Source: Escherichia coli (GTDB lineage: Bacteria; Pseudomonadota; Gammaproteobacteria; Enterobacterales; Enterobacteriaceae). Taken from it: a stretch of DNA of 64,000 nt. The stretch lies in the NCBI RefSeq assembly GCF_022846255.1, contig NZ_AP025682.1; one strand, given 5' to 3'. Position numbers and translations under genes: made by a program. Shown here in pieces: positions 3,840-53,848 of the stretch (the first letter of the stretch is position 1; the number at the start of each line of letters is the position of its first letter). Under the pieces are notes generated by a model. The model was not told the origin of the DNA. It searched no databases and was given only the letters and a program-made list of their open reading frames with translations.

Positions 3840-4205
3840 TTATTTCCCTTCAATGGCCTCTCTGATGCCGCTGATTTGCAGATTCAGAAAGGTCAGACTG
3901 CTTTGATAATCCATACTATTTTGTGAAAACCGCGCCTGTTCGCTGTTCAGTTCCACGGTGTTGCCATCTTCCGACGGCTGCATCGGCACGCGGTACTGGA
4001 CATCCACCGCCGCGTTATTTGCCCGTTGCATCTCCCTGGCAAAATCAATATCTTTAGCCTTGAAATTTGGCGTATCGACGTTCGCCAGATTCGCAGTCAG
4101 TAGCTCGGTCCTCTCAAGACGTAACTTCACTGCCTGCGGATGCACTCCCAATGCCTGTTGAAAACTGATCCCCATTTCTTGCGTCACTCCTGCTTCAATC
4201 CGCAT
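3840..4205 (-). CDS. lfgB: Flagellar basal-body rod protein FlgB (true start probably the internal ATG at 4175)
   Basis: ANLANVDTPNFKAKDIDF rod motif; the sigma-54 promoter at 4212-4227 leaves too little leader for the 4205 start; a GGAG RBS precedes the ATG at 4175. Confidence 0.8.
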   Translation of the reverse strand: MRIEAGVTQEMGISFQQALGVHPQAVKLRLERTELLTANLANVDTPNFKAKDIDFAREMQRANNAAVDVQYRVPMQPSEDGNTVELNSEQARFSQNSMDYQSSLTFLNLQISGIREAIEGK

Positions 4206-4211
4206 ACGCTA

Positions 4212-4227
4212 AGCAATCGCCGTGCCA
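4212..4227 (-). promoter_or_regulatory. Sigma-54 (RpoN) -24/-12 promoter for the lfgBCDEFG operon
   Basis: Reverse complement reads TGGCACggcgaTTGCT, a perfect TGGCAC-N5-TTGCW match; a sigma-54 activator (lafK) is encoded in the same locus. Confidence 0.6.
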
Positions 4228-4256
4228 TTTTTTAAGTGACTGATGAGAAAAGGTTT

Positions 4257-4994
4257 ATGAGTTTTCAATTTTGCAGGCGGAAGTTTTATTTCCTCCTGGC
4301 GCTGGCCTTACCGGGCTACGCCGCCGTCCATCCCGTGCAACATAGCGCGCGGGAACAAGTCAACGCCCAGGTGCTGAATGCCGCCAGCCAGCAGATTGAA
4401 TCGCTAGCGCAGCAGCGGCAGTGGCATGACTATCGCTACACCTTTAAGGTCTACATTCCCTCGCAGATTTCGACTGCCGCGCCCTGCGCTACGGCCCCCG
4501 GCGTCACGCTGACTTCGCCTGCGGAAATCGCTCTCAACCGGATGAACTTCACCGTCAGTTGCCCGCAAAGCTGGCAGATGAACGTCGCGGTGCGCCCGGA
4601 TGTTCTGGTACCGGTGGTGATGGCAAAGTCACTGGTTGCCCGCGATACGCCGCTCACGGCAAATGATGTGGAGCTGAAGCCCTACAACGTCAGCGCCCAG
4701 CGTCGCGATGTGTTGATGGAGCTTGATGACGCGATTGGTTTCAGCAGTAAACACGCGTTGCAGCCGGGCAGGCCAATCACCAAAGAAGAACTGATATCTC
4801 CGGTGCTGGTCGAGCGCGATCAACCGGTGATGATTGTTTACCAGAGCGCGGGGATCAGCGCCTCGCTGCCCGGCGTGGCGCTGAAAAATGGTCGTAAGGG
4901 CGAGATGGTGAAAGTGCGTAACGCCAGCAGCCAGCGGGTCATCAGCGCGATGGTGGCAGAAAGCGGCGTGGTGACGACGGTAAGCGCGGAGTAA
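4257..4994 (+). CDS. lfgA: Flagellar P-ring assembly chaperone FlgA
   Basis: ORF from 4236 (GTG) with likely ATG start at 4257; signal-peptide-like N-terminus; divergent from flgB as in flg loci; C-terminal SAF-like region. Confidence 0.75.
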   Translation: MSFQFCRRKFYFLLALALPGYAAVHPVQHSAREQVNAQVLNAASQQIESLAQQRQWHDYRYTFKVYIPSQISTAAPCATAPGVTLTSPAEIALNRMNFTVSCPQSWQMNVAVRPDVLVPVVMAKSLVARDTPLTANDVELKPYNVSAQRRDVLMELDDAIGFSSKHALQPGRPITKEELISPVLVERDQPVMIVYQSAGISASLPGVALKNGRKGEMVKVRNASSQRVISAMVAESGVVTTVSAE

Positions 4995-7029: not shown

Positions 7030-9474
7030 ATGCCAACACCGACCATCATCAAAACACTCGCCACCCACCGCGAAAAACCGTTCGTCAGCGTCGTCACGCC
7101 AACCTGGAACCGCGGCGCATTCCTGCCGTACCTGCTTTATATGTACCGCTATCAGGACTACCCGGCAGACCGCCGCGAACTGGTCATCCTCGACGATTCC
7201 CCGCAAAGCCATCAACACATCATCGACCGCCTGACCAATGGCACGCCGGAGTCCTTCAACATCCGCTACATCCATCACCCGGAAAAACTGCCGCTGGGCA
7301 AAAAACGCAACATGCTCAACGAACTGGCGCGCGGCGAATACATCCTCTGCATGGACGATGACGACTACTACCCGGCAGATAAAATCTCTTACACCATCGC
7401 TATGATGCAAAAAAACCGGGCGCTCATCTCCGGTTCCGACCAGATCCCCATCTGGTACAGCCACATCAATCGCATCTTTCAAAGCCGCAGCTTCGGCCCG
7501 CATAACATCCTCAACGGCACCTTTTGCTATCACCGTAACTACCTGAAAAAGCACCGCTACGATGACGATTGCAATTTAGGCGAAGAGAAAAGTTTCACCG
7601 ACAATTTCAGCGCTAACCCGCTACAACTGCCCGGCGAGCGCACGATTTTGTGTATCTCGCACAGCCACAACACCTTTGATAAAGACTTTATCCTCGGGGC
7701 CAGCACGCCTGTAAACGCGGCGCTTACGGATATCGTCAGCGATCCGCTGCTACGCAACGCTTATCTGGGTCTGCATAACGCCACTCATTATCAGGCGATC
7801 CAGCATCAGGCGATCGATCAGATCGTTCTGCTGAATCTGGATAAACGCCCGGATCGCTTACAGCAGATCCGTGAAGAACTGACATTGCTGCATATTCCGC
7901 CTGAGAAGATCACCCGCCTTGCCGCCAGTGAAAATGAAAACGGTCAACGGGGCCGCCAGCAATCACACTTGCAGGCGCTGCATCTGGCGCAACAGCACGG
8001 CTGGCAAAACTATCTGCTGCTGGAAGATGACGCGGTTATTCTCAAACAGGAGAAACATATTCAGGTGCTGAACGCGCTGCTGGCGAGCCTGGCGAAAATT
8101 CCCTGGCAGGTGATGATCCTCGGCGGCGAAATTTCGCAGGGAACGATGCTAAAAAGTTTGCCTGGGCTGGTGCACGCGCGGGACTGCCGCAAAGTGTGCG
8201 CTTATCTGGTGAACAGCCGCTACTACCTGCAGCTGGCGCAGCAGATGAACAACGATGAGCATTCGCTGGAAGGCGGCTGGCAGCCGCTGCTGCGCACCGA
8301 CAAATGGCTGGCCTGTTACCCGAGCCTTTGTTATCAGCGACCGGGCTTTAGTGATATCGAGAAAAAAGCGACTGATAACATTAACCACTACTTCAATAAG
8401 TTACCCGTAGCCACCAAGCCATCTACATTACCTATCGCCGATACCATCGGCTTTTTTATGGAAACCTCATTCCACTACGCGCTCTACCGCCCAATCATCA
8501 CTGCCCTACAGGCGCAAGGACAAAGCTGCACGCTGGTGATCAACGACCGCGTGTTTAAACCGTTTCTGGATGAAATGCTGAATACGTTAAAAAGCATCGA
8601 CGATCCACAGCTCAAAGGAATGCGCTTATCGGAAATGCAGGCACACGGTCAGCGAGTAAAATGCCTGGTCAGCCCCTATCACACGCCTGCGCTCAGTGGC
8701 CTTTCCCCCCTGAACATTCGCGCCATGTACGGCTTAGCCAAAGAAACGTGGAACCACGCCGACTGGAACCGTTTTTATCAGCGCATTTTGTGTTACAGCC
8801 ACTACAGTCAGCGGGCGCTGGCACATTTCGGCAGCGCAAAAGTGGTCGGCAACCCACGCTTCGACGCCTGGCATAACGGCACGTTCGACCGCGCTCTGCC
8901 GGAAAATATCCAACCCGATTCCCGTAAACCTACGGTGCTCTATGCCCCCACGTTTGGCGCATTAAGCTCCCTGCTCCACTGGGCAGAAAAATTGGGGCGT
9001 TTGAGCGGCGATGTGAACCTGATTTGCAAACTGCACCACGGCACCTGCTCGCGCCCGGAAGAAGCCGCATCGCTGGCACTGGCGCGCAGGCATTTAAAAC
9101 AGCGCACCGACTCTGCCCGCCACACGCTGGCGCTACTGGCAAAGGCCGATTACGTGCTCACCGATAACAGCGGGTTTATTTTCGATGCTATCCACGTTGA
9201 TAAACGGGTGATCCTGCTCGACTTTCCGGGCATGACGGAACTGCTCGACGGTGAGAAAAGCTACTCCACGGCAGAGAGCGCCGACCAGCGAATCCGCGAA
9301 ATATTGCCGGTGGCTCATGATGTTGCGGAACTGCGTTACTTATTGTCAGAGGTATTTGACTGGGGGGCGGTTCAGACGCGGCTTACGGAAATTCGCCATC
9401 ACTATTGCGATGCGTTTATGGATGGCAAGGCGGGAGAACGAGCGGCGTTGGTGATTGTGGAGGCGTTGGGGTAA
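7030..9474 (+). CDS. Multidomain glycosyltransferase: N-terminal GT2-like, central GT25-like, C-terminal CDP-glycerol glycerophosphotransferase (TagB/TagF)-like
   Basis: N-terminus VSVVTPTWNR...LDDS and ILCMDDDDYY (GT-A/GT2 signatures); C-terminus VLYAPTF and VLTDNSGFIFDAIHVDKRVILL resemble TagF-family motifs; ORF from 6958, likely ATG at 7030. Confidence 0.6.
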   Translation: MPTPTIIKTLATHREKPFVSVVTPTWNRGAFLPYLLYMYRYQDYPADRRELVILDDSPQSHQHIIDRLTNGTPESFNIRYIHHPEKLPLGKKRNMLNELARGEYILCMDDDDYYPADKISYTIAMMQKNRALISGSDQIPIWYSHINRIFQSRSFGPHNILNGTFCYHRNYLKKHRYDDDCNLGEEKSFTDNFSANPLQLPGERTILCISHSHNTFDKDFILGASTPVNAALTDIVSDPLLRNAYLGLHNATHYQAIQHQAIDQIVLLNLDKRPDRLQQIREELTLLHIPPEKITRLAASENENGQRGRQQSHLQALHLAQQHGWQNYLLLEDDAVILKQEKHIQVLNALLASLAKIPWQVMILGGEISQGTMLKSLPGLVHARDCRKVCAYLVNSRYYLQLAQQMNNDEHSLEGGWQPLLRTDKWLACYPSLCYQRPGFSDIEKKATDNINHYFNKLPVATKPSTLPIADTIGFFMETSFHYALYRPIITALQAQGQSCTLVINDRVFKPFLDEMLNTLKSIDDPQLKGMRLSEMQAHGQRVKCLVSPYHTPALSGLSPLNIRAMYGLAKETWNHADWNRFYQRILCYSHYSQRALAHFGSAKVVGNPRFDAWHNGTFDRALPENIQPDSRKPTVLYAPTFGALSSLLHWAEKLGRLSGDVNLICKLHHGTCSRPEEAASLALARRHLKQRTDSARHTLALLAKADYVLTDNSGFIFDAIHVDKRVILLDFPGMTELLDGEKSYSTAESADQRIREILPVAHDVAELRYLLSEVFDWGAVQTRLTEIRHHYCDAFMDGKAGERAALVIVEALG

Positions 9475-36836: not shown

Positions 36837-37313
36837 TTAATTCAGTTCCCAGAACCAGATTTCCTTGCAGCTAAAATAGCAATGTGAATGACATATAGCA
36901 CCTGTGGTAGAAGGCTCAATAAGATCTATATGACCGCCACCGTAACCCGTAATTTTCCAGAAAAAGACCACTCCTCTTTTATTACTGGTGTCTGTTTTAA
37001 ATTTTTCTGAGTCACACCAGATAACTGGTCTTCCAAAAACATCAGCTCGGGAAAGCTGATCTGCCAGTAATTTCGCACCGGTTTCTATTTTCTTCCCTTT
37101 CCAGTCACCACTTTTGATCGTCAGTCGCCCGTTAAAGCTGACGCCTGATTTAATCAGCGCCAGACTCATACGTGTGGCACAGGTATTTACATAACCAGCA
37201 TTTTGCTGTTGCAGTGCTTCATAGTTATAACCCACTTCACTGTACAAAACATCACCATCAATCTGAACTGATGAGTAATGGTTTTTTTTAAGTGTGAAAA
37301 ATGAAGGTTTCAT
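36837..37313 (-). CDS. Tae4-like type VI amidase effector (papain-like Cys/His peptidoglycan amidase)
   Basis: AGYVNTCATRMSLAL (Cys) and GGGHIDLIEP (His) resemble the Tae4 catalytic motifs as I recall them; 158 aa, no signal peptide. Confidence 0.55.
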   Translation of the reverse strand: MKPSFFTLKKNHYSSVQIDGDVLYSEVGYNYEALQQQNAGYVNTCATRMSLALIKSGVSFNGRLTIKSGDWKGKKIETGAKLLADQLSRADVFGRPVIWCDSEKFKTDTSNKRGVVFFWKITGYGGGHIDLIEPSTTGAICHSHCYFSCKEIWFWELN

Positions 37314-38005
37314 TTATTATTTCCTTTATCACAGGAGTGTTTACTTAGTGCCTCAATAATAATATTTGCAGCCCGTTCATTCAGTTTATCTGACGTTTTT
37401 TTTCTGAAATACCAGTAAATAATCTCATCCAGTGTAACTGTTTTAATCGTTTTATAATCGCACCATGTTTTTCTTTCCGTGGCATCTTCTATACCCAAAA
37501 GATAGATTTTCGCATTAAGCCTATCCTGCCTGTTATCTGACTGCCAGAAGCGGAAAAAATCATCTCCGTTCAGATCGAACGCGCCAGAGGTCAGGTGTGA
37601 AACAGATGAATGCCGGGGAGATTTTTTTTCCGGTGATGCCATATCCGGGCAGGGAAACAGCCTGACCATCGCTTGTTCAATCAGAGTTGAAGCTCGCATA
37701 TTCATATCGTTAACCGACTGCTGATTAAGATATGTCAGTACCGATGAATAAAGTTCTATTTCATTAATCTTATTATATCCACACCAGGTTTTACTTTCTG
37801 TCGCATCACTCACACCAAGGACATACATCAGAACATTTTCTTTTTCCTGTGACGTTCCACGAGCATAAAATGACAAAAATTCCTGCGCACTGAGATTAAT
37901 ATAATCGGGGTCAATAGTTCCTGTGTTTTTTCTGATATCAGCAAAAACATTTCCTGACATGGCATATAACAAAAAAATAATAAAAAAACGCGTATATTGT
38001 TGCAT
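37310..38005 (-). CDS. Secreted tandem-repeat protein, candidate immunity protein (two ~100-aa repeats each with paired Cys)
   Basis: Signal peptide; internal duplication (VLGVSDATESKTWCGYNKI... / LLGIEDATERKTWCDYKTI...). Confidence 0.5.
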   Translation of the reverse strand: MQQYTRFFIIFLLYAMSGNVFADIRKNTGTIDPDYINLSAQEFLSFYARGTSQEKENVLMYVLGVSDATESKTWCGYNKINEIELYSSVLTYLNQQSVNDMNMRASTLIEQAMVRLFPCPDMASPEKKSPRHSSVSHLTSGAFDLNGDDFFRFWQSDNRQDRLNAKIYLLGIEDATERKTWCDYKTIKTVTLDEIIYWYFRKKTSDKLNERAANIIIEALSKHSCDKGNNK

Positions 38006-42445: not shown

Positions 42446-42901
42446 TCAAAATTCTCTGGATAGAATAATATAGCCATTGAATCTTACGGAACACTCATTT
42501 TCATTAATAAGGCCGGATGCAATAAAAACATCTTTCCCTCTGTCATTGTTAATATAGGTATATTTTGCCACAATAGACTTGGCATGATTTTCATAGTAGC
42601 TATCAAAATACGATTTTTCATCTAACATTGCCTTCTTATTTCTGGCTTTGTCCTTCTCATAATCAATCTTAGCCAGAGACTCTGCATAAAACTTAGACAC
42701 AGGAGAAACATCAAGAACTTCTACCCTTGTTTTATCTCTTAAAATAGTAGAAGAATTTATATTCAAATCACTTTTCATTGCATCAAATAACGACAACTCT
42801 ATTGAGGCTCCAACCGTAGCGCAACCATCATTTTGTGCATATGAAATTGCAGGTATGCCAGCTAACAGGCAGATTATTACCTTGAACATATTAGTCCTCA
42901 A
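42446..42901 (-). CDS. Secreted protein, candidate immunity protein for the L,D-transpeptidase-like effector
   Basis: Signal peptide (MFKVIICLLAGIPAISYA); overlaps the upstream effector gene. Confidence 0.5.
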   Translation of the reverse strand: MRTNMFKVIICLLAGIPAISYAQNDGCATVGASIELSLFDAMKSDLNINSSTILRDKTRVEVLDVSPVSKFYAESLAKIDYEKDKARNKKAMLDEKSYFDSYYENHAKSIVAKYTYINNDRGKDVFIASGLINENECSVRFNGYIILSREF

Positions 42902-43259
42902 CCACTAATATTTTATCAGTACTGGCAGCAATAACCTTGCGATAAGGTAAATCCAGAATTATACAGCCATCAGAGGCTTCTCCTGGATGGGCTGAACTCT
43001 CTCCGTGTATCATGAAACCGTCACGCCCGCACATTTGATTTTCGGGGTAAGGCGTGAGCCTCATCGTCCATGCTCTTGTTCTGGCATGAAAAAATGCAAG
43101 TCCAATTGTATATGTACCTCTTGGCAATGGTCCCTTATCTCTTACACACTCATTAACAGAGTCATCTTTAAAACCCGGTCTGCCAGAATATCTGGCATTG
43201 AACTGATAGCTACCATTTAAATAAAATGAACGTGCATTAATTTTGTATACCCAAGGCAT
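42891..43259 (-). CDS. YkuD/L,D-transpeptidase-fold protein, Tlde1-like candidate T6SS effector
   Basis: FMIHGESSAHPGEASDGCIIL matches the YkuD catalytic H...SxGC motif; between tssL and tssM. Confidence 0.6.
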   Translation of the reverse strand: MPWVYKINARSFYLNGSYQFNARYSGRPGFKDDSVNECVRDKGPLPRGTYTIGLAFFHARTRAWTMRLTPYPENQMCGRDGFMIHGESSAHPGEASDGCIILDLPYRKVIAASTDKILVVED

Positions 43260-47276: not shown

Positions 47277-47729
47277 CTATTTACATGTCACAGATACCGA
47301 TGACTCTCCTGGTACCCGCTGCCCCGGCAAAGAAGATGCCTGGCACTGTGTCGCCAATGCAGGGACCGGTTGTGATAACCAAACCTGTCCATGGTTATAA
47401 ATACAGGAAACCCAGTAACGTTCACTATTCTGATTACTGGCCATTGTGGTATCCCATATTTGCCTGGTTTCACCCTTTATTGTCTCTGTCTCTGGTTTTA
47501 GATCCACCCGATTTTCAGGTTTTCCCTGCGACATCCCTACCCCGTCCAACCACAGACGGGGTTCATAGCGGGAAGATCTCTGCCACGATGCAGATATATC
47601 TGGCTCCAGTACTGTTGTTGAGGATTTTATATTGATAAACACGGGGCAACTGACTTCCCACGCAGTAACAAATTGTGAATAAAACAACATAAAACCCAAC
47701 AACAGAGAAAAAATAAAACGTGTCCCCAT
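47277..47729 (-). CDS. Secreted Cys-containing protein, candidate immunity protein
   Basis: Signal peptide (MGTRFIFSLLLGFMLFYSQFVTA); follows a small effector-like ORF. Confidence 0.45.
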   Translation of the reverse strand: MGTRFIFSLLLGFMLFYSQFVTAWEVSCPVFINIKSSTTVLEPDISASWQRSSRYEPRLWLDGVGMSQGKPENRVDLKPETETIKGETRQIWDTTMASNQNSERYWVSCIYNHGQVWLSQPVPALATQCQASSLPGQRVPGESSVSVTCK

Positions 47730-47741
47730 TGAATCTATCCT

Positions 47742-48149
47742 CTACTCAATAATATAAAAAGCTTCCGCATTATTACTGGCATCAGGATATGTTCCATCGC
47801 TGCGCATTCCACCTTTTCGGGAAATAGGGCGTGCAGAGACTTTCGTGGTTTTACCTGTCCACTGGTCCATAACATAAATATACTGACTATCCTGTTCCAG
47901 ATAGAAAGCGGCATGCTTATGCTCATTCTGCCTCGAGGGATACTTTCCGTTAACAAAAGTGGCAATTGCTGTTCCTCTGGGGATCGATTTATCCCCAAAA
48001 ACCTTTCGCCCCTGCTTCCAGGCTCCAGTATTCCCCACATGTGCATATACCTGAACTAAGAACACACATTCCTTTCTGTCTCCTGCCCCCGCCATTCCCA
48101 CCATGTCAGTGCCCTGCAATGAATCTACCAGTCCATAAACATATGCCAT
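47742..48149 (-). CDS. Small putative T6SS effector (unassigned family) between tssC and hcp
   Basis: 135 aa, no signal peptide, single Cys (ECVFLV) and His cluster (NEHKH); sits where SPI-6-type clusters carry tae/tai cassettes. Confidence 0.4.
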   Translation of the reverse strand: MAYVYGLVDSLQGTDMVGMAGAGDRKECVFLVQVYAHVGNTGAWKQGRKVFGDKSIPRGTAIATFVNGKYPSRQNEHKHAAFYLEQDSQYIYVMDQWTGKTTKVSARPISRKGGMRSDGTYPDASNNAEAFYIIE

Positions 48150-48199: not shown

Positions 48200-49714
48200 T
48201 CAGGCATTACCCTGTTTTACTGACGGCAGTTTTGTCACCAGACGCAGTGATCCTGTTAACCCTTCAAGCTGAAAATGCGGGCGCAGGAAGAATTTGGCGT
48301 CGTAATAGCCCGGATTCCCCTCCACCTCTTCCACCACCACTTCAGCAGCTGCCAGCGGGCGACGAGCTTTGGTTTCCTGTGAGGAGTTCACCGGATCGGC
48401 ATCGACGTAGTTCATGATCCACTCATTGAGCCAGCGCTGCATATCTTCGCGCTCTTTGAACGAGCCGATCTTGTCGCGCACGATACATTTGAGGAAGTGC
48501 GCAAACCGTGAGCAGGCGAAAAGATATGGCAAACGAGCTGAGAGATTGGCGTTGGCCGTAGCATCCGGATCGTAATACTCCTGCGGTTTTTGTAGAGACT
48601 GCGCGCCAATAAAGGCGGCGTAATCAGAGTTTTTGCGGTGGATAAGTGGGATAAAACCATTTTTCGCCAGTTCAGCTTCACGACGGTCAGAGATGGCAAT
48701 TTCTGTCGGGCATTTCATATCCACGCCGCCGTCATCGGTCGGGAAGGTATGACAGGGCAGATTTTCCACCGCGCCACCAGATTCAACACCGCGGATCAAC
48801 GTACACCAACCGTAATGTTTGAAAGAGCGGTTGATATTTACACCCATTGCATAGGCGGCATTGCTCCAGACATATTTGCTGTGATCTGCGCCATCCGCAT
48901 CTTCTTCAAAATCAAACTCATCGACAGGGTTTGTTTTCGCACCATAAGGCAAACGGGAGAGAAAACGTGGCATCGTCAGGCCAATGTAGCGAGAATCCTC
49001 ACTTTTTCGCAGCGAGTTCCACGGTGCGTATTCGAGGTTTTGGGTCACAATTTTGGTCAGATCACGCGGGTTAGCCAGTTCCTGCCAGGAATCCATCTGC
49101 AACACTGATGGAGAGGCCCCAGCAATAAACGGCGCATGGGCTGAGGCTGCCACTTTGGCAATGGAGCCGAGCAGATCCACATCCGGTGGCGTGTGATCAA
49201 AATAATAATCCGCAATAATACAACCGTAAGGTTCTCCGCCTAACTGCCCATATTCGGCTTCATACAGCTTTTTGAACATGGGGCTTTGATCCCACGCGAT
49301 CCCTTTGTAACGCTTCATATTTTTCCGCAATTCATCCTTCGAAAGGTTCATAAAGCGGATTTTTAATTTTTCATCGGTTTCGGTGTTGTAAACCAAATGT
49401 TCCATCCCACGCCAGGAGGACTCCAGTTTCTGAAATTCCGGATGATTCAGGATTAGTTTGATCTGCTCAGTTAATTTGAAATCGATCTGCTCAATAATTG
49501 CAGCAATACTTTTATAAGCATCATCACTAACAGTGATCGTATTTGTCAGAGCCTGTTGGGCCAGCGTCTGAACTGCCGCCTCAACAGCCTTTGCAGCCTG
49601 AGGAGTCTTGGGACGGAAAGCTTTATCCAGCAGCGAATCAAATTCCGTTTCCTGATAGGCAGTGGTTTGCGCAGCAGAGAGGTCGCCAGTCGCCAGAAGA
49701 GTATCGTTTACCAT
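48200..49714 (-). CDS. tssC: T6SS contractile sheath large subunit TssC (VipB)
   Basis: 504 aa; conserved TssC layout downstream of tssB. Confidence 0.9.
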   Translation of the reverse strand: MVNDTLLATGDLSAAQTTAYQETEFDSLLDKAFRPKTPQAAKAVEAAVQTLAQQALTNTITVSDDAYKSIAAIIEQIDFKLTEQIKLILNHPEFQKLESSWRGMEHLVYNTETDEKLKIRFMNLSKDELRKNMKRYKGIAWDQSPMFKKLYEAEYGQLGGEPYGCIIADYYFDHTPPDVDLLGSIAKVAASAHAPFIAGASPSVLQMDSWQELANPRDLTKIVTQNLEYAPWNSLRKSEDSRYIGLTMPRFLSRLPYGAKTNPVDEFDFEEDADGADHSKYVWSNAAYAMGVNINRSFKHYGWCTLIRGVESGGAVENLPCHTFPTDDGGVDMKCPTEIAISDRREAELAKNGFIPLIHRKNSDYAAFIGAQSLQKPQEYYDPDATANANLSARLPYLFACSRFAHFLKCIVRDKIGSFKEREDMQRWLNEWIMNYVDADPVNSSQETKARRPLAAAEVVVEEVEGNPGYYDAKFFLRPHFQLEGLTGSLRLVTKLPSVKQGNA

Positions 49715-49738: not shown

Positions 49739-50284
49739 TTAGTCTGCTGTTCCCGTTTCACCTGATAAGACACTTTCCTGTTGAGCGACAGGTTTTGGCG
49801 CGCTGGCCAGAGCTTTCAGTAACGTCGGGTCTTGTAATAGTTTGTTGATCAGATTTTCTGCTCCCGCTTTACCATCCATGTAGGTTTGCAGGTTGGCAAG
49901 CTGAGTACGTGCTTCCAGCAGCTGGTTCAGGGCATCCACCTTACGGGCAATCTGCGCAGGCGAGAAATCGTCCATATTCTCCAGCGTGATATCGACCATC
50001 AACTGCCCTTCGCCCGTCAGCGTATTGGGGACAGCAAACGCCACGCGCGGCGCAATGGCTTTCATCCTCTCGTTGAAGTTATCGATATCAATATCAAGGA
50101 ATTTACGATCGGTGACCGGCGGCAGCTCTTCACGCGGTTTACCCGCCAGGTCGGCCAGCACCGCCATGACAAACGGCAGTTCGATTTTTTTCTCGGAGCC
50201 GTAAATCTCAACGTCATACTCAATCTGCACGCGGGGCGCGCGGTTGCGGGCAATAAACTTCTGCGCGCTGTTGTTGATAGCCAT
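49739..50284 (-). CDS. tssB: T6SS contractile sheath small subunit TssB (VipA)
   Basis: 181 aa; PRVQIEYDVEIYGSEKKIELPFVMAVLADL is the canonical TssB core. Confidence 0.9.
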   Translation of the reverse strand: MAINNSAQKFIARNRAPRVQIEYDVEIYGSEKKIELPFVMAVLADLAGKPREELPPVTDRKFLDIDIDNFNERMKAIAPRVAFAVPNTLTGEGQLMVDITLENMDDFSPAQIARKVDALNQLLEARTQLANLQTYMDGKAGAENLINKLLQDPTLLKALASAPKPVAQQESVLSGETGTAD

Positions 50285-50345
50285 AATCCTTCATTTCCTT
50301 ATCAGTGAGCCGACGACCACCAGGGGAGCGGTTCGACGGTACAGT

Positions 50346-50636
50346 TTAAAAATCATACGCAGAGAGTATTTTTATAATCTCTTTGTTTTCTTTGTACTTT
50401 TCCCGCAGCACAGGGAGTGATTTCTTTGCCGGAGGACACCAGGTATCAACCCCCTTTTCGATGTCTCTTTTATCCTTCTCTGGTAAAGAACTGTCCCATT
50501 CACCAGCAAGATGCTGGCACATTTCCGCATTACTCAGAAAATGCTGCACATCCTGTGGTAAAGGCGGTTCCCCCTGAACACAGAAAGCGAAAATCATTAA
50601 CAGGAATGTCAACAACATCGGATAACGAAATGCCAT
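50346..50636 (-). CDS. Small secreted protein, candidate immunity protein for the M15-like peptidase
   Basis: Signal peptide (MAFRYPMLLTFLLMIFAFCVQG); directly follows the peptidase gene. Confidence 0.5.
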   Translation of the reverse strand: MAFRYPMLLTFLLMIFAFCVQGEPPLPQDVQHFLSNAEMCQHLAGEWDSSLPEKDKRDIEKGVDTWCPPAKKSLPVLREKYKENKEIIKILSAYDF

Positions 50637-50638
50637 AC

Positions 50639-51202
50639 TTAATGTCCATCAATTGACCAGTGAGGTATATCTGTATTGCCGCCAACAAATTTTCTGACGC
50701 CGTAACCCAGACCTACCGCCTGAAGCTGGGCATTCATTCCGGTTCGAGGTAGTGTATTAATTGCAACATTCTGACCATTGCTCCCCGCAATTGTTAATGT
50801 TCCGCTCCAACTGATATTCATATCTATCGCAGTACCGCGTGTATGGTTGGAGCTCAGTGCAGGCGCGACATTCAGATTATTCATACCATAGGCCGTAACC
50901 ATAGCCTGCGCCGCTTCAAGCGAGGCTTGCTCAGTCGGGTGAACCCACTCAATATCCACCCCCTCCATCGCCGGGACGTTTTTTGCCTGAACGATTTCAT
51001 GAGCAATCAACCATGACCAGTGCATGAGATATGCTCTGGCGGGAGGGCGATATGTTGCAGAAATACTGACCCTTGCGCGTGCATTACCAAGCGCTCGCAA
51101 AAAATTATCTACCGATGCACGAAAAGTCCCCTGCAAATCATTAGTGGAAGAACTTCCAGGAAAGCGACTGACCCACAGTGCGCCACTTAATTCTTTTGCC
51201 AT
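50639..51202 (-). CDS. Zinc peptidase M15 (VanY/hedgehog-type) fold protein, candidate peptidoglycan-peptidase T6SS effector
   Basis: SNHTRGTAID matches SxHxxGxAxD and a terminal His (DIPHWSIDGH) is present; no signal peptide; between clpV and tssB. Confidence 0.55.
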   Translation of the reverse strand: MAKELSGALWVSRFPGSSSTNDLQGTFRASVDNFLRALGNARARVSISATYRPPARAYLMHWSWLIAHEIVQAKNVPAMEGVDIEWVHPTEQASLEAAQAMVTAYGMNNLNVAPALSSNHTRGTAIDMNISWSGTLTIAGSNGQNVAINTLPRTGMNAQLQAVGLGYGVRKFVGGNTDIPHWSIDGH

Positions 51203-51214
51203 AAGGATGCTCCA

Positions 51215-53848
51215 TTAATCCGTGTCAAAAATAATCTGTTCATCCTCATCAACACGAATGCGGATTTGCGTGATGGCCGTTTTCTCTGTCATCGCCTGCA
51301 GCCAATAACGGGACAGTTGTGGGAGGATATGTTGTTCGATATAGCCGATGAGCAAACGAGCGCCGGTTTCGTGCATCGGGCAGCGCGACACAATATGCGT
51401 AATCAGTTCATCGCCATACACCAGTGAAACGCCATGCTGCTCCGCCATCCGATCCATCAATCTGCCAAGATGCAGGCGGGCAATAACACCACGCGCGGTC
51501 TCATCCAGCGGTAAATAAGGAATAACCGTCACACGCCCCAGGAAAGCCGCCGGGAAGTGTTTACGTAACTCCGGCATTAACGCCTCTTTTAACCCTGCCG
51601 AATCGGGCATCAGCGCCGGATCCTCACAGAGCTGGCTGATAAGTTCCGCCCCCGCGTTAGTCGTCAACAACAGCGTGGTATTTTTGAAATCGATGTGGAC
51701 ACCTTCGCCATCTTCCATCGCCCCCTTATCAAACACCTGGAAGAACAGCTCGTGGACGTCGTGATGGGCTTTTTCAATTTCATCCAGCAATACCACGCTC
51801 CAGGGATGGCGGCGTACCGCTTCCGTCAACACGCCGCCTTCGCCATAGCCGACGTAGCCGGGCGGCGCGCCTTTCAGAGTGGAGACTGTGTGAGACTCTT
51901 GATACTCGCTCATGTTGATGGTGATCAGATTCTGTTCACCGCCATAGATTGCTTCTGCCAGTGCCAGCGCGGTCTCAGTCTTGCCTACTCCGGACGGCCC
52001 GGCCAGCAAAAAGACACCCACTGGCTTACGCGGGTCACCTAAACCCGCCCGCGCGGTCTGGATACGCTCGCCAATCTGCGCCAACGCATCCATCTGCCCG
52101 GTAACACGCTGCGCCAAACGGGTGGGCAATTCCAGTATCTGACTGGCTTCATCTTTCACCATCCGTCCGGCGGGAATACCGGTCCAGTCGGAGACAATCT
52201 CTGCCACCACGGTTGCACTGACTTCCGGGTACACGACGGGGTTTTCACCCTGCCAGCCTCTTAATGCCGTTTCTGCCTGTTGTAGAGTGATTTCGTCGCG
52301 CTCGCCAGGCGCTGCGCCGCGTTGCTCCTGTAAACTGCGAACCAACTCCAGTTCCTGCTGCCACCGCGCTTCGGTGTCAGAAAGATCGGCATTAAGCGAT
52401 ATAATCCGCGCCGTCAGTACATCGCCCCGCTCCGAGCGGATACCCATTTTTTCCTGCTTTAATAACAACTCCTGCTCCAGTTCGGCAGCGTTGAGCTGCT
52501 GGCGCAGATACTGGACTCTCGCAGGCGGGGTATGCAGCGACAGCGCTACACGGGCCGCCGCCGTATCCAGCAGGCTGATGGCCTTATCCGGTAGTTGCCG
52601 GGCCGGAATGTAACGGTGAGAAAGCTGTACAGCGGCGCGCACGGCCTCATCAAGAATCAGGACATCATGGTGTTCTTCAAGCGTGGTGACTAATCCGCGC
52701 ACCATCTCAACAGCCGCAACCTCTTCCGGCTCAGCAACCTGCAATACCTGAAAACGCCGGGTCAGCGCCGGATCCTTTTCGATATGGCGTTTGTACTCGC
52801 TCCAGGTGGTTGCGCCGATGGTGCGCAGAGTGCCACGCGCCAGCGCCGGTTTCAGCAGGTTGGCAGCATCCCCCGTACCGGATGTACCACCAGCGCCCAC
52901 CAGGGTGTGAACTTCATCAACAAAAAGTATCACCGGCTGCGCCGAGCGCGCGGCCTCTTCCAGCAAAGCTTTCAGGCGGGATTCAAATTCACCCTTCATG
53001 GACGCCCCAGCCAGCAGCGCTCCAACATCCAGTGACAGCAACCGCACGTTACGCAGTGAAGGCGGCACTTCCCCCCCGGCAATCGCCAGCGCGAATCCTT
53101 CCACCACTGCCGTTTTCCCGACCCCCGCCTCGCCGGTCAGCAGCGGATTGTTCTGGCGACGGCGCAGCAGAATATCCGTCATAGTACGGATCTCGTGTTC
53201 GCGTCCGGTGACCGGATCGATATTGCCTTCACGGGCCAGCGCAGTCATGTCCTGGCAGTATTTCGCCAGCGCGGATTTACTTCCGGTTGATTCGCCGGCA
53301 AAGACCTGGCTAGCTTCCCCCGGTACTGCAAAATTTAAATCCGAGCCGTCATAAGGTATTTCTGTTAATTCAGGAGATGAAGCGATTAAAGACGGAAGAA
53401 TATCTAATAGTTCATCTACCGGTAGCCCTGCCAATGGCGCACAGATATTTTTTAACACCCGATACAATTCTGGCGTGGTTAACCAGGCAAGTAATAACCA
53501 TCCACTACGAATTTTTTGATCACCAAAGCGGATACTTGCCAACATCCAGGCTTTTTCAACAGAAAGATCGATATGATGGGAAAAATCGTTAATTACACTC
53601 GCTCCGGCAGGCAATATATTCAATTGCTGAATTAACGCCTTCTCAACATCAGCAGATGTTATTTGATAATGTCGAAGCACATTGTGAATGTCATTCTCTG
53701 GTTGTTGTATTAACTGATGCAACCAATGCGTCAGTTCGACATAAGGATTAGCGCGTAATTTACAGAACGTCGTCGCAGATTCCAAAGATCTAAACAAAGA
53801 TTTGGTTAGCTTTCCATACAGTGCACTGCGCGAAACAGGAGTGTCCAT
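51215..53848 (-). CDS. clpV: T6SS AAA+ ATPase ClpV (TssH)
   Basis: 877 aa; two AAA+ modules with Walker A motifs GEAGVGKT and GPSGVGKT; ClpB-like without middle-domain expansion. Confidence 0.9.
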   Translation of the reverse strand: MDTPVSRSALYGKLTKSLFRSLESATTFCKLRANPYVELTHWLHQLIQQPENDIHNVLRHYQITSADVEKALIQQLNILPAGASVINDFSHHIDLSVEKAWMLASIRFGDQKIRSGWLLLAWLTTPELYRVLKNICAPLAGLPVDELLDILPSLIASSPELTEIPYDGSDLNFAVPGEASQVFAGESTGSKSALAKYCQDMTALAREGNIDPVTGREHEIRTMTDILLRRRQNNPLLTGEAGVGKTAVVEGFALAIAGGEVPPSLRNVRLLSLDVGALLAGASMKGEFESRLKALLEEAARSAQPVILFVDEVHTLVGAGGTSGTGDAANLLKPALARGTLRTIGATTWSEYKRHIEKDPALTRRFQVLQVAEPEEVAAVEMVRGLVTTLEEHHDVLILDEAVRAAVQLSHRYIPARQLPDKAISLLDTAAARVALSLHTPPARVQYLRQQLNAAELEQELLLKQEKMGIRSERGDVLTARIISLNADLSDTEARWQQELELVRSLQEQRGAAPGERDEITLQQAETALRGWQGENPVVYPEVSATVVAEIVSDWTGIPAGRMVKDEASQILELPTRLAQRVTGQMDALAQIGERIQTARAGLGDPRKPVGVFLLAGPSGVGKTETALALAEAIYGGEQNLITINMSEYQESHTVSTLKGAPPGYVGYGEGGVLTEAVRRHPWSVVLLDEIEKAHHDVHELFFQVFDKGAMEDGEGVHIDFKNTTLLLTTNAGAELISQLCEDPALMPDSAGLKEALMPELRKHFPAAFLGRVTVIPYLPLDETARGVIARLHLGRLMDRMAEQHGVSLVYGDELITHIVSRCPMHETGARLLIGYIEQHILPQLSRYWLQAMTEKTAITQIRIRVDEDEQIIFDTD

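Follow-up and report, generated by a model that had tools for sequence, protein, structure and literature searches.

What two small genes annotated as "hypothetical proteins" are doing between tssB and tssH (clpV) of a type VI secretion system (T6SS) cluster is the question raised by a 64,000-nucleotide stretch of an Escherichia coli chromosome (contig NZ_AP025682.1), referred to here as the window. The open reading frames (ORFs) concerned encode proteins of 187 and 96 amino acids, named ORF187 and ORF96. In this study, we report that ORF187 is a LAS-fold zinc peptidase by its structure and active-site signature, and that by sequence it belongs to a family of its own. The two proteins likely form an antibacterial T6SS effector-immunity pair, in which ORF187 would cleave peptidoglycan stem peptides.

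Fold and active site of ORF187

ORF187 has a mass of 20.1 kDa, a pI of 8.2 and no cysteine, and was found to have the Hedgehog/DD-peptidase fold of the LAS zinc peptidases of MEROPS clan MD. In the comparison with M15 and LAS peptidases, the values obtained were 7.5 for VanYB, 7.4 for the Ply500 L-Ala-D-Glu peptidase, 7.3 for LysB4, 6.7 for both LdcB and VanXYc, 6.4 for VanXYg, 6.3 for VanX, 5.6-5.9 for Sonic hedgehog / hedgehog, 5.7 for DacB, 5.1 for the T5 endolysin, and 5.0 for the RB49 endolysin and the S. albus DD-peptidase.

The initial annotation had described a protein of 187 residues whose SNHTRGTAID segment fits the motif SxHxxGxAxD, and this was borne out. The segment is the sole match to the S.H..G.A.D pattern in the six-frame translation of the window, where about 0.06 chance matches are expected per translated window and 8e-5 per 187-aa protein. 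Alignment of 34 diverse homologues showed S6, W10, R52, W86, H88, H120, D127, D178, H181, W182 and S183 to be invariant, with S118 and A125 conserved in at least 90% of the sequences and G123 variable. The catalytic positions were likewise invariant in an alignment of 48 multidomain relatives. Both sets therefore retain the zinc triad of H-x6-D plus a C-terminal His (H120, D127 and H181), and the acidic general base in E/D-x-x-H form (D178-x-P-H181) is invariant together with the arginine R52. A C-terminal His had also been pointed out earlier; the functional one is H181, within a D178-x-P-H181-W-S block, and not the final residue, H187, which is not conserved among the 34 homologues.

The catalytic blocks follow the canonical LAS order (Arg, SxH...D, DxPH) and resemble those of Ply500: T-Y-R52-P corresponds to G-Y-R50-S, S-N-H120-x-x-G-x-A-x-D127 to S-N-H80-x-x-G-x-A-x-D87, and D178-I-P-H181-W to D130-Y-P-H133-F. 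In ChiX, the acid/base and zinc-ligand roles of D120 and H123 match those predicted for D178 and H181 (PMC5778951). From the order of the motifs, R52 is proposed as the arginine that binds the substrate or transition state. Compared with the Ply500 type, ORF187 has about 38 extra residues between R52 and H120, an insertion that contains the invariant W86 and H88.

Profile searches gave a different picture of the M15 assignment made in the initial annotation, which is upheld by structure and active-site motifs and finds no significant match in Pfam, NCBIfam or hhalign. The best Pfam match was Peptidase_M15_4, not significant at E = 0.12 over 16 residues, and the best NCBIfam match, to the D-Ala-D-Ala dipeptidase DdpX, had E = 0.024 and scored 14 bits where the cutoff is 176. 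Using hhalign, H120/D127 of ORF187 were placed on H80/D87 of Ply500, with the S-x-H...D block the only part aligned and a non-significant probability of 2-4%. Comparison of the ORF187 family with a Ply500-family profile gave E = 0.009 and 4% probability, the template profile being shallow and of low diversity, as it was built from close relatives only (at least 70% identity). Sequence searches of the PDB returned nothing relevant for either the single ORF187 query or a profile of its family, and PHROGs and PADLOC returned nothing significant for ORF187 or ORF96. No match to ORF187 was found by tblastn against 50,697 phage records, indicating that it is not a recent phage endolysin.

The family comprises 405 clusters at 90% identity in a word search, and an exhaustive search with HMMER gave 926 representatives at 50% identity, including 273 below 1e-30. 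ORF187 itself was confirmed to lack a signal peptide, inspection of the sequence having found neither a signal peptide nor an N-terminal hydrophobic segment. Relatives in Paenibacillus carry a Sec signal peptide.

The partner protein, synteny and delivery modules

The presence of a 96-aa signal-peptide ORF after ORF187, between clpV and tssB, was confirmed. Removal of the signal peptide leaves a mature ORF96 of about 74 aa (8.6 kDa). In order to follow the pair across species, an effector-profile scan of one genome per species was used, which yielded 80 loci; a partner hidden Markov model built from the first 25 partners was then applied to all of them. An ORF96 homologue lies directly downstream of the ORF187 homologue in 36 of these loci, spanning Enterobacterales, Pseudomonas, Oxalobacteraceae, Rhodocyclales, Comamonadaceae, Neisseriales-like taxa and Xanthomonadales. 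This recurrence, the 2-bp spacing and the signal peptide or lipobox of the partner together give the arrangement of a downstream immunity gene. In Pectobacterium and Intestinirhabdus the pair forms an isolated module amid unrelated genes, outside T6SS clusters, suggesting that it moves as a unit.

Every ORF96-type partner has an N-terminal signal peptide, and the family shares the pattern P-x-D-V-x-x-F...C-x-H-x-x-G-E followed by a second invariant cysteine. Among 30 paired sequences, C40 and C67 were invariant and G45 and E46 were conserved in at least 90%; the two invariant cysteines suggest a periplasmic disulphide, and C40 and C67 are probably linked in this way. The cysteine at the position of the ORF96 signal peptide is a canonical lipobox cysteine in several homologues (LLLSGC in Pectobacterium, FLLSC in Intestinirhabdus). 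Pfam holds no family for ORF96, and a word search found its homologues in Escherichia, Salmonella and Citrobacter only.

Two other identities were considered for ORF96. Weak matches to StoA, ResA and thioredoxin were obtained (NCBIfam E = 1e-6, 28 bits against a cutoff of 210; PDB E = 0.003-0.01). The similarity is centred on TWCPPAKK (residues 61-67 and on; from 50436-50456, minus strand), a segment specific to E. coli; there is no CxxC or second cysteine, the W and PP are not conserved in the family, and the 74-aa mature protein is predicted to be all-helical, so the likeness to WCxxC was judged to be due to chance. A spanin or holin role was rejected on the lack of a C-terminal or internal transmembrane segment and the linkage to PAAR and T6SS genes.

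Association of the two proteins was modelled with AlphaFold2 (AF2). For the paired alignment, effector and mature partner from 30 loci were joined by a (GGGGS)6 linker, and the E. coli fusion was predicted. The ORF187-(GGGGS)6-ORF96 model reached a predicted template modelling score (pTM) of 0.82 over 291 residues, in a run with no non-cognate control. Its linker was disordered, with a predicted local distance difference test score (pLDDT) below 50, and its ORF96 part formed three helices with pLDDT of 91-97. As one 187-residue domain gives at most about 0.6 pTM in 291 residues, the partner appears to be confidently placed.

The partner position is not always occupied by an ORF96 homologue. 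In Ralstonia, Janthinobacterium, Rugamonas and Fulvimonas, a different protein of 173-189 aa with a signal peptide or lipobox occupies the immunity position. This second, unrelated partner type was seen at 8617-9138 of locus L010 and in the downstream ORFs of loci L014, L016, L029, L083 and L081. Rubrivivax gelatinosus (L052) carries tandem ORF96-type genes, at 8485-8889 and 8868-9251, after one effector gene.

Linkage to the T6SS was found at several levels. Of 5,426 complete E. coli genomes searched, 116 carry this tssB, and every one of these also has a match to the pair region, with coverage of at least 80% in 107. In other enterobacterial clusters, orthologues of 80% and 74% identity were found at the corresponding place between clpV and tssB. 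Outside Enterobacteriaceae, a PAAR gene lies immediately upstream of the effector homologue at about 19 of the 80 loci, and an adjacent or fused PAAR, or neighbouring T6SS genes, were detected at 22 or more of the 80 (a lower bound, from BLAST only). Pseudomonas has the gene order VgrG-PAAR-effector-immunity. Rhodanobacter and Fulvimonas encode PAAR and the domain as a single protein, joined by a Gly-rich linker, within T6SS clusters (AFDB A0A1I4GB70).

Among the 48 longer relatives, Pfam identified fusions to PG_binding_1 (4), eCIS_core (3) and SH3_3 (2), single fusions to PAAR, Amidase_2, Phage_lysozyme and VanY, and lipase and trypsin domains. Fusions of the ORF187-type domain to pesticin-C, SLT, PGRP and chitinase-like domains were present in AFDB. 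The repeated fusion to modules for delivery by injection and for wall binding or degradation argues for an extracytoplasmic peptidoglycan substrate. The long homologues were also considered as Rhs, VgrG or CdiA toxins, and were rejected as such because NCBIfam gave subtilisin-like, trypsin-like or no domains.

Homologues adjacent to PAAR share an N-terminal leader of about 20 residues, M-T/A-T-x-x-L-T-P-T...Q-T-P-A-V, which E. coli ORF187 lacks and which may be a PAAR- or adaptor-docking peptide. Examples of the leader are at 7574-7660 of locus L016, 4707-4772 of L030 and 8001-8060 of L010.

These fusions bear on two further interpretations. ORF187 could be a cytoplasmic VanX/DdpX-like dipeptidase or an enzyme of murein-peptide recycling or editing, for example one altering the stems of the producer for resistance. 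This we hold to be highly improbable, since relatives fused to PAAR, eCIS_core, PG_binding_1, lysozyme or amidase, or carrying a Sec signal peptide (Paenibacillus), are extracytoplasmic, the conserved partner is periplasmic, and the pattern of orphan partners in Salmonella (see below) fits immunity. Alternatively, ORF187 could be a delivered LAS-fold effector with a target other than the stem (lipid II, the link between Lpp and peptidoglycan, or a different periplasmic peptide), or a hedgehog-like binder without catalysis. The four catalytic residues do not vary across hundreds of clusters, and the repeated occurrence of peptidoglycan-binding and peptidoglycan-hydrolase domains as fusion partners favours peptidoglycan itself, which makes this proposal unlikely.

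Orphan partner genes and the proposed mechanism

An immunity gene is typically recognised by its persistence after the toxin has been lost, and such orphans were found in Salmonella. The Salmonella partner is 77-93% identical to ORF96, and in the contigs sampled here it is intact, at 81-93% identity. At two loci (L006 and L007; 4900-4998) the effector has been cut to a 32-aa ORF that aligns with ORF187 residues 156-187, and at a third, from another serovar (L008; 4794-4995), residues 1-63 and 181-187 are left, roughly 70 aa; in all three the immunity gene is intact downstream. Blondel et al. (2023) had described, between tssH and tssB in variable region 1 (VR1) of Salmonella pathogenicity island 6 (SPI-6), a candidate "32-aa L-Ala-D-Glu endopeptidase" and a signal-peptide ORF, and treated the two as a new candidate effector-immunity module on bioinformatic annotation only (PMC10469887); a later survey relists the 32-aa candidate (PMC11669294). 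On the evidence of its sequence, the 32-aa ORF in the sampled loci is a deletion remnant of an ORF187 orthologue and not an enzyme. Full-length orthologues occur in some Salmonella-like contigs (AFDB A0A5I5V8H3).

Orphan partner genes were found not only at these three loci but also in an islet of S. enterica subsp. salamae. Here the ORF96 homologue (3870-4292 of locus L003; also L004 and L005) is called as 140 aa from an upstream start and lies away from T6SS genes, among a DDE transposase gene, small unknown ORFs, an outer membrane protein beta-barrel gene and an autotransporter gene. This locus may represent an islet of orphan immunity comparable to SAIDI-1 in S. Typhi (PMC7400221). In E. 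coli 06-00048 (NZ_CP015229.1; L002, 4340-4904), the annotation marks the ORF187 orthologue as a pseudogene with a frameshift and the immunity gene is intact, indicating that the effector decays within E. coli too. In view of the synteny, the PAAR linkage and the Salmonella orphans, the term "secreted partner" used for ORF96 in the initial annotation is best replaced by that of an immunity protein, periplasmic and possibly lipidated.

The Salmonella loci also bear on a role for ORF187 in the machine itself. TagX, an M15-type (PF13539) L-Ala-D-Glu endopeptidase encoded in T6SS core clusters, is essential for Hcp export, and like ORF187 it is a LAS/M15-type peptidase with a D-x-x-H general base (PMC5061870). 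ORF187, encoded in the middle of the core operon, could by this precedent be a self-acting wall-remodelling enzyme, or part of a ChiX-like holin/endopeptidase release system, with ORF96 as an accessory or regulator. However, TagX is held by a two-transmembrane anchor, targets its own wall and is essential to the machine, whereas ORF187 is soluble, with no transmembrane segment or N-terminal anchor, has an immunity partner and is dispensable for the integrity of the Salmonella cluster. No holin-like gene adjoins ORF187, ORF96 has only a cleavable N-terminal signal peptide, and the pair also occurs far from T6SS clusters and behind or fused to PAAR. Complete SPI-6 clusters of Salmonella keep all core genes and the partner and have lost the enzyme by deletion, the opposite of what would be expected of an assembly factor; this pattern argues against a need for ORF187 in the T6SS machine. 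A self-acting role is thus very unlikely.

For the effector-immunity pair, we infer the following route of secretion, substrate and mode of inhibition. ORF187 would be made in the cytoplasm without a signal peptide and, most likely, travel as a 20-kDa cargo inside the Hcp tube, Hcp loading being favoured because the E. coli protein has neither an adjacent PAAR gene nor the N-terminal leader. The SPI-6-like T6SS would then deliver it to the periplasm of an adjacent Gram-negative bacterium. With zinc held by H120, D127 and H181, D178 acting as general base and R52 binding the substrate, the LAS-fold site would hydrolyse an amide bond of the stem peptide and so weaken the sacculus. ORF96 would be exported by Sec to the periplasm of the producer, maybe anchored by a lipid, where the disulphide-stabilised three-helix protein would bind ORF187 arriving from sister cells and block its cleft. 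As to the bond, L-Ala-D-Glu is put forward tentatively, at somewhat less than even likelihood; it is favoured because D-x-P-H matches Ply500, ChiX and TagX and not the E-x-x-H of VanX/VanY (PMC5778951, PMC5061870). A D-Ala-directed carboxy- or endopeptidase activity would be a possible alternative.

Several points weigh against the effector-immunity interpretation. A significant match to any M15 family was not found by any sequence-profile method; the lack of such a match had been named beforehand as grounds for giving up the M15 assignment, and the result comes close to it literally, although we judged it to be outweighed by the structural evidence. The predicted zinc site was read from motifs and not from three-dimensional geometry, and the L-Ala-D-Glu assignment is a best guess from one resemblance in catalytic residues. 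The pTM of a fused chain, obtained with neither a predicted aligned error nor a control, is an indirect indication of association, as the linker can force packing. In the literature searched, secretion, toxicity or muropeptide data for any family member were not found. Finally, a clade of homologues of about 181 aa in Alphaproteobacteria (loci L070-L092; e.g. 7968-8540 of L084 and 7995-8555 of L072) has no signal peptide, leader or downstream signal-peptide ORF, and its neighbours are housekeeping genes (RarA, an RluA-type pseudouridine synthase and a propionyl-CoA carboxylase subunit). This argues that not all members of the family are toxins, and the clade may be a cytoplasmic branch or one that is non-toxic for some other reason.

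Genomic setting and relation to known systems

The host cluster is an SPI-6-like T6SS island located beside tRNA-Asp (aspV) on the E. coli chromosome. The order on the minus strand is Rhs, an EagR-like gene, VgrG, TagF, Tae4/Tai4, tssM, a tlde1-domain gene with its downstream partner, tssL, tssK, tssJ, hcp, an STY0301-family gene, a BPSL0067-family gene, tssC, tssB, ORF96 with ORF187, and tssH, after which comes the divergent tagK-tagJ-tssEFGA. The positions of the features of the pair and its neighbours are listed in Table 1.

Table 1. Positions of the ORF187-ORF96 pair, its motifs and the adjoining genes in the window
Feature	Position	Strand	Description
ORF187	50639..51202	minus	187 aa, predicted T6SS effector, LAS/M15-fold zinc peptidase
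SNHTRGTAID, S118-D127	50822..50851	minus	H120 and D127, first two predicted zinc ligands
D178-I-P-H181	50660..50671	minus	predicted catalytic acid/base (D178) and third zinc ligand (H181)
R52 in T-x-R-P	51047..51049	minus	proposed counterpart of VanX R71 / ChiX R47
ORF96	50346..50636	minus	96 aa, predicted periplasmic immunity protein
ORF96 signal peptide, residues 1-22	50571..50636	minus	sequence MAFRYPMLLTFLLMIFAFCVQG
C40-Q-H-L-A-G-E46 (CxHxxGE signature)	50499..50519	minus	from 30 paired sequences
C67 of ORF96	50436-50438	minus	second invariant Cys
clpV/tssH	51215..53848	minus	upstream neighbour, transcribed in the direction of ORF187
tssB	49739..50284	minus	downstream neighbour of ORF96
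tssC	48200-49714		after tssB

The clpV-ORF187 spacer is 12 bp, the ORF187-ORF96 spacer 2 bp and the ORF96-tssB spacer 61 bp, and a GGAG lies 7 nt ahead of the ORF187 ATG. A scan for promoter- and terminator-like sites between clpV, ORF187, ORF96 and tssB gave counts equal to those of shuffled controls and was thus uninformative. The region 50300-51250 is 99.9% identical in strain 2014C-3338 and six other complete genomes. The GC content of the pair (50346-51202) is about 43-52%, compared with 55-60% for clpV (51250-53350), which fits cargo modules gained apart from the core genes.

Other candidate wall-directed modules were noted in the same island. A second small effector-immunity-like pair, with a likewise low GC content of 41-48%, occupies the tssC-hcp interval (47277-48149, minus strand), the position of the Tae2/Tai2 slot of SPI-6 VR1; it consists of a BPSL0067-family protein of 135 aa (NCBIfam E = 8e-50) and an STY0301-family protein of 150 aa with a signal peptide. 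Further wall-effector modules lie at 36837-38005 and 42446-43259 (both minus strand). One pairs Tae4 with an immunity protein of the Rap1a/Tai family, and the other consists of a tlde1-domain protein and an ORF of 147-151 aa downstream of it. The island thus holds at least four peptidoglycan-directed pairs and one Rhs toxin.

In its layout, a small leaderless effector followed by a periplasmic immunity gene in an SPI-6-type cluster, the ORF187-ORF96 pair resembles Tae/Tai, Tlde1/Tldi1 and Tge/Tgi, and the window also carries Tae4/Tai4, the tlde1-domain gene with its partner and the Tae2-like (BPSL0067)/STY0301 pair. The enzymes differ in fold and chemistry: the Tae proteins belong to the NlpC/P60 Cys-His amidases, the fold of Tlde1 is that of YkuD, and the Tge proteins are glycoside hydrolases, whereas ORF187 is a predicted zinc metallopeptidase whose lack of cysteine leaves no Tae-type Cys-His pair. 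The M15C-type L-alanyl-D-glutamate endopeptidases Ply500, ChiX, T5 endolysin and CwlK show no significant profile link to ORF187, which is further set apart from the Ply500/ChiX type by its insertion, its immunity protein, and its linkage to T6SS and PAAR genes rather than a holin or phage context. WHIX subclass II effectors (PMC12135965) and Tpe14 of A. baumannii (PMC6833914) have M15- or MepA-like T6SS toxin domains, as ORF187 does; those domains are recognised by CDD/Pfam as M15 and lie in larger multidomain effectors, whereas the ORF187 family goes unseen by Pfam and is usually stand-alone or PAAR-linked. The Salmonella SPI-6 VR1 candidate belongs to the same locus and gene family as the E. 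coli pair, ORF187 being full-length and the sampled Salmonella ORF a remnant.

The kind of system is well known, and attention had been drawn to the locus before, in Salmonella, where the gene is a stump. A paper characterising full-length ORF187, its family or the immunity family was not found in the literature searched. There is about an even chance that ORF187 and ORF96 are the founding members of two new families, a LAS-fold toxin domain that uses several routes and a disulphide-bonded helical immunity family. The former may comprise about 930 clusters at 50% identity, delivered as T6SS cargo linked to Hcp or PAAR, in fusion with PAAR, as cargo of extracellular contractile injection systems (eCIS) and, in Gram-positive bacteria, through Sec. 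The bond specificity of ORF187 may differ from that of known M15 enzymes, as its insertion carries the invariant W86 and H88, and the invariant CxHxxGE of the immunity family might cap the catalytic zinc.

To our knowledge, the peptidoglycan-directed T6SS effectors characterised so far in Enterobacteriaceae are Cys amidases, YkuD-type enzymes and glycosidases. If the proposal is true, a zinc-metallopeptidase class would be added to them, together with a new immunity family. A recurring annotation in the Salmonella literature is corrected, the "32-aa effector" being a gene stump and the gene that is kept encoding immunity. As the family is large and is joined to many delivery modules, one biochemical characterisation would annotate hundreds of proteins now called "hypothetical" or "peptidoglycan-binding domain-containing", and the pair could be a source of a small lytic enzyme and a matching inhibitor.

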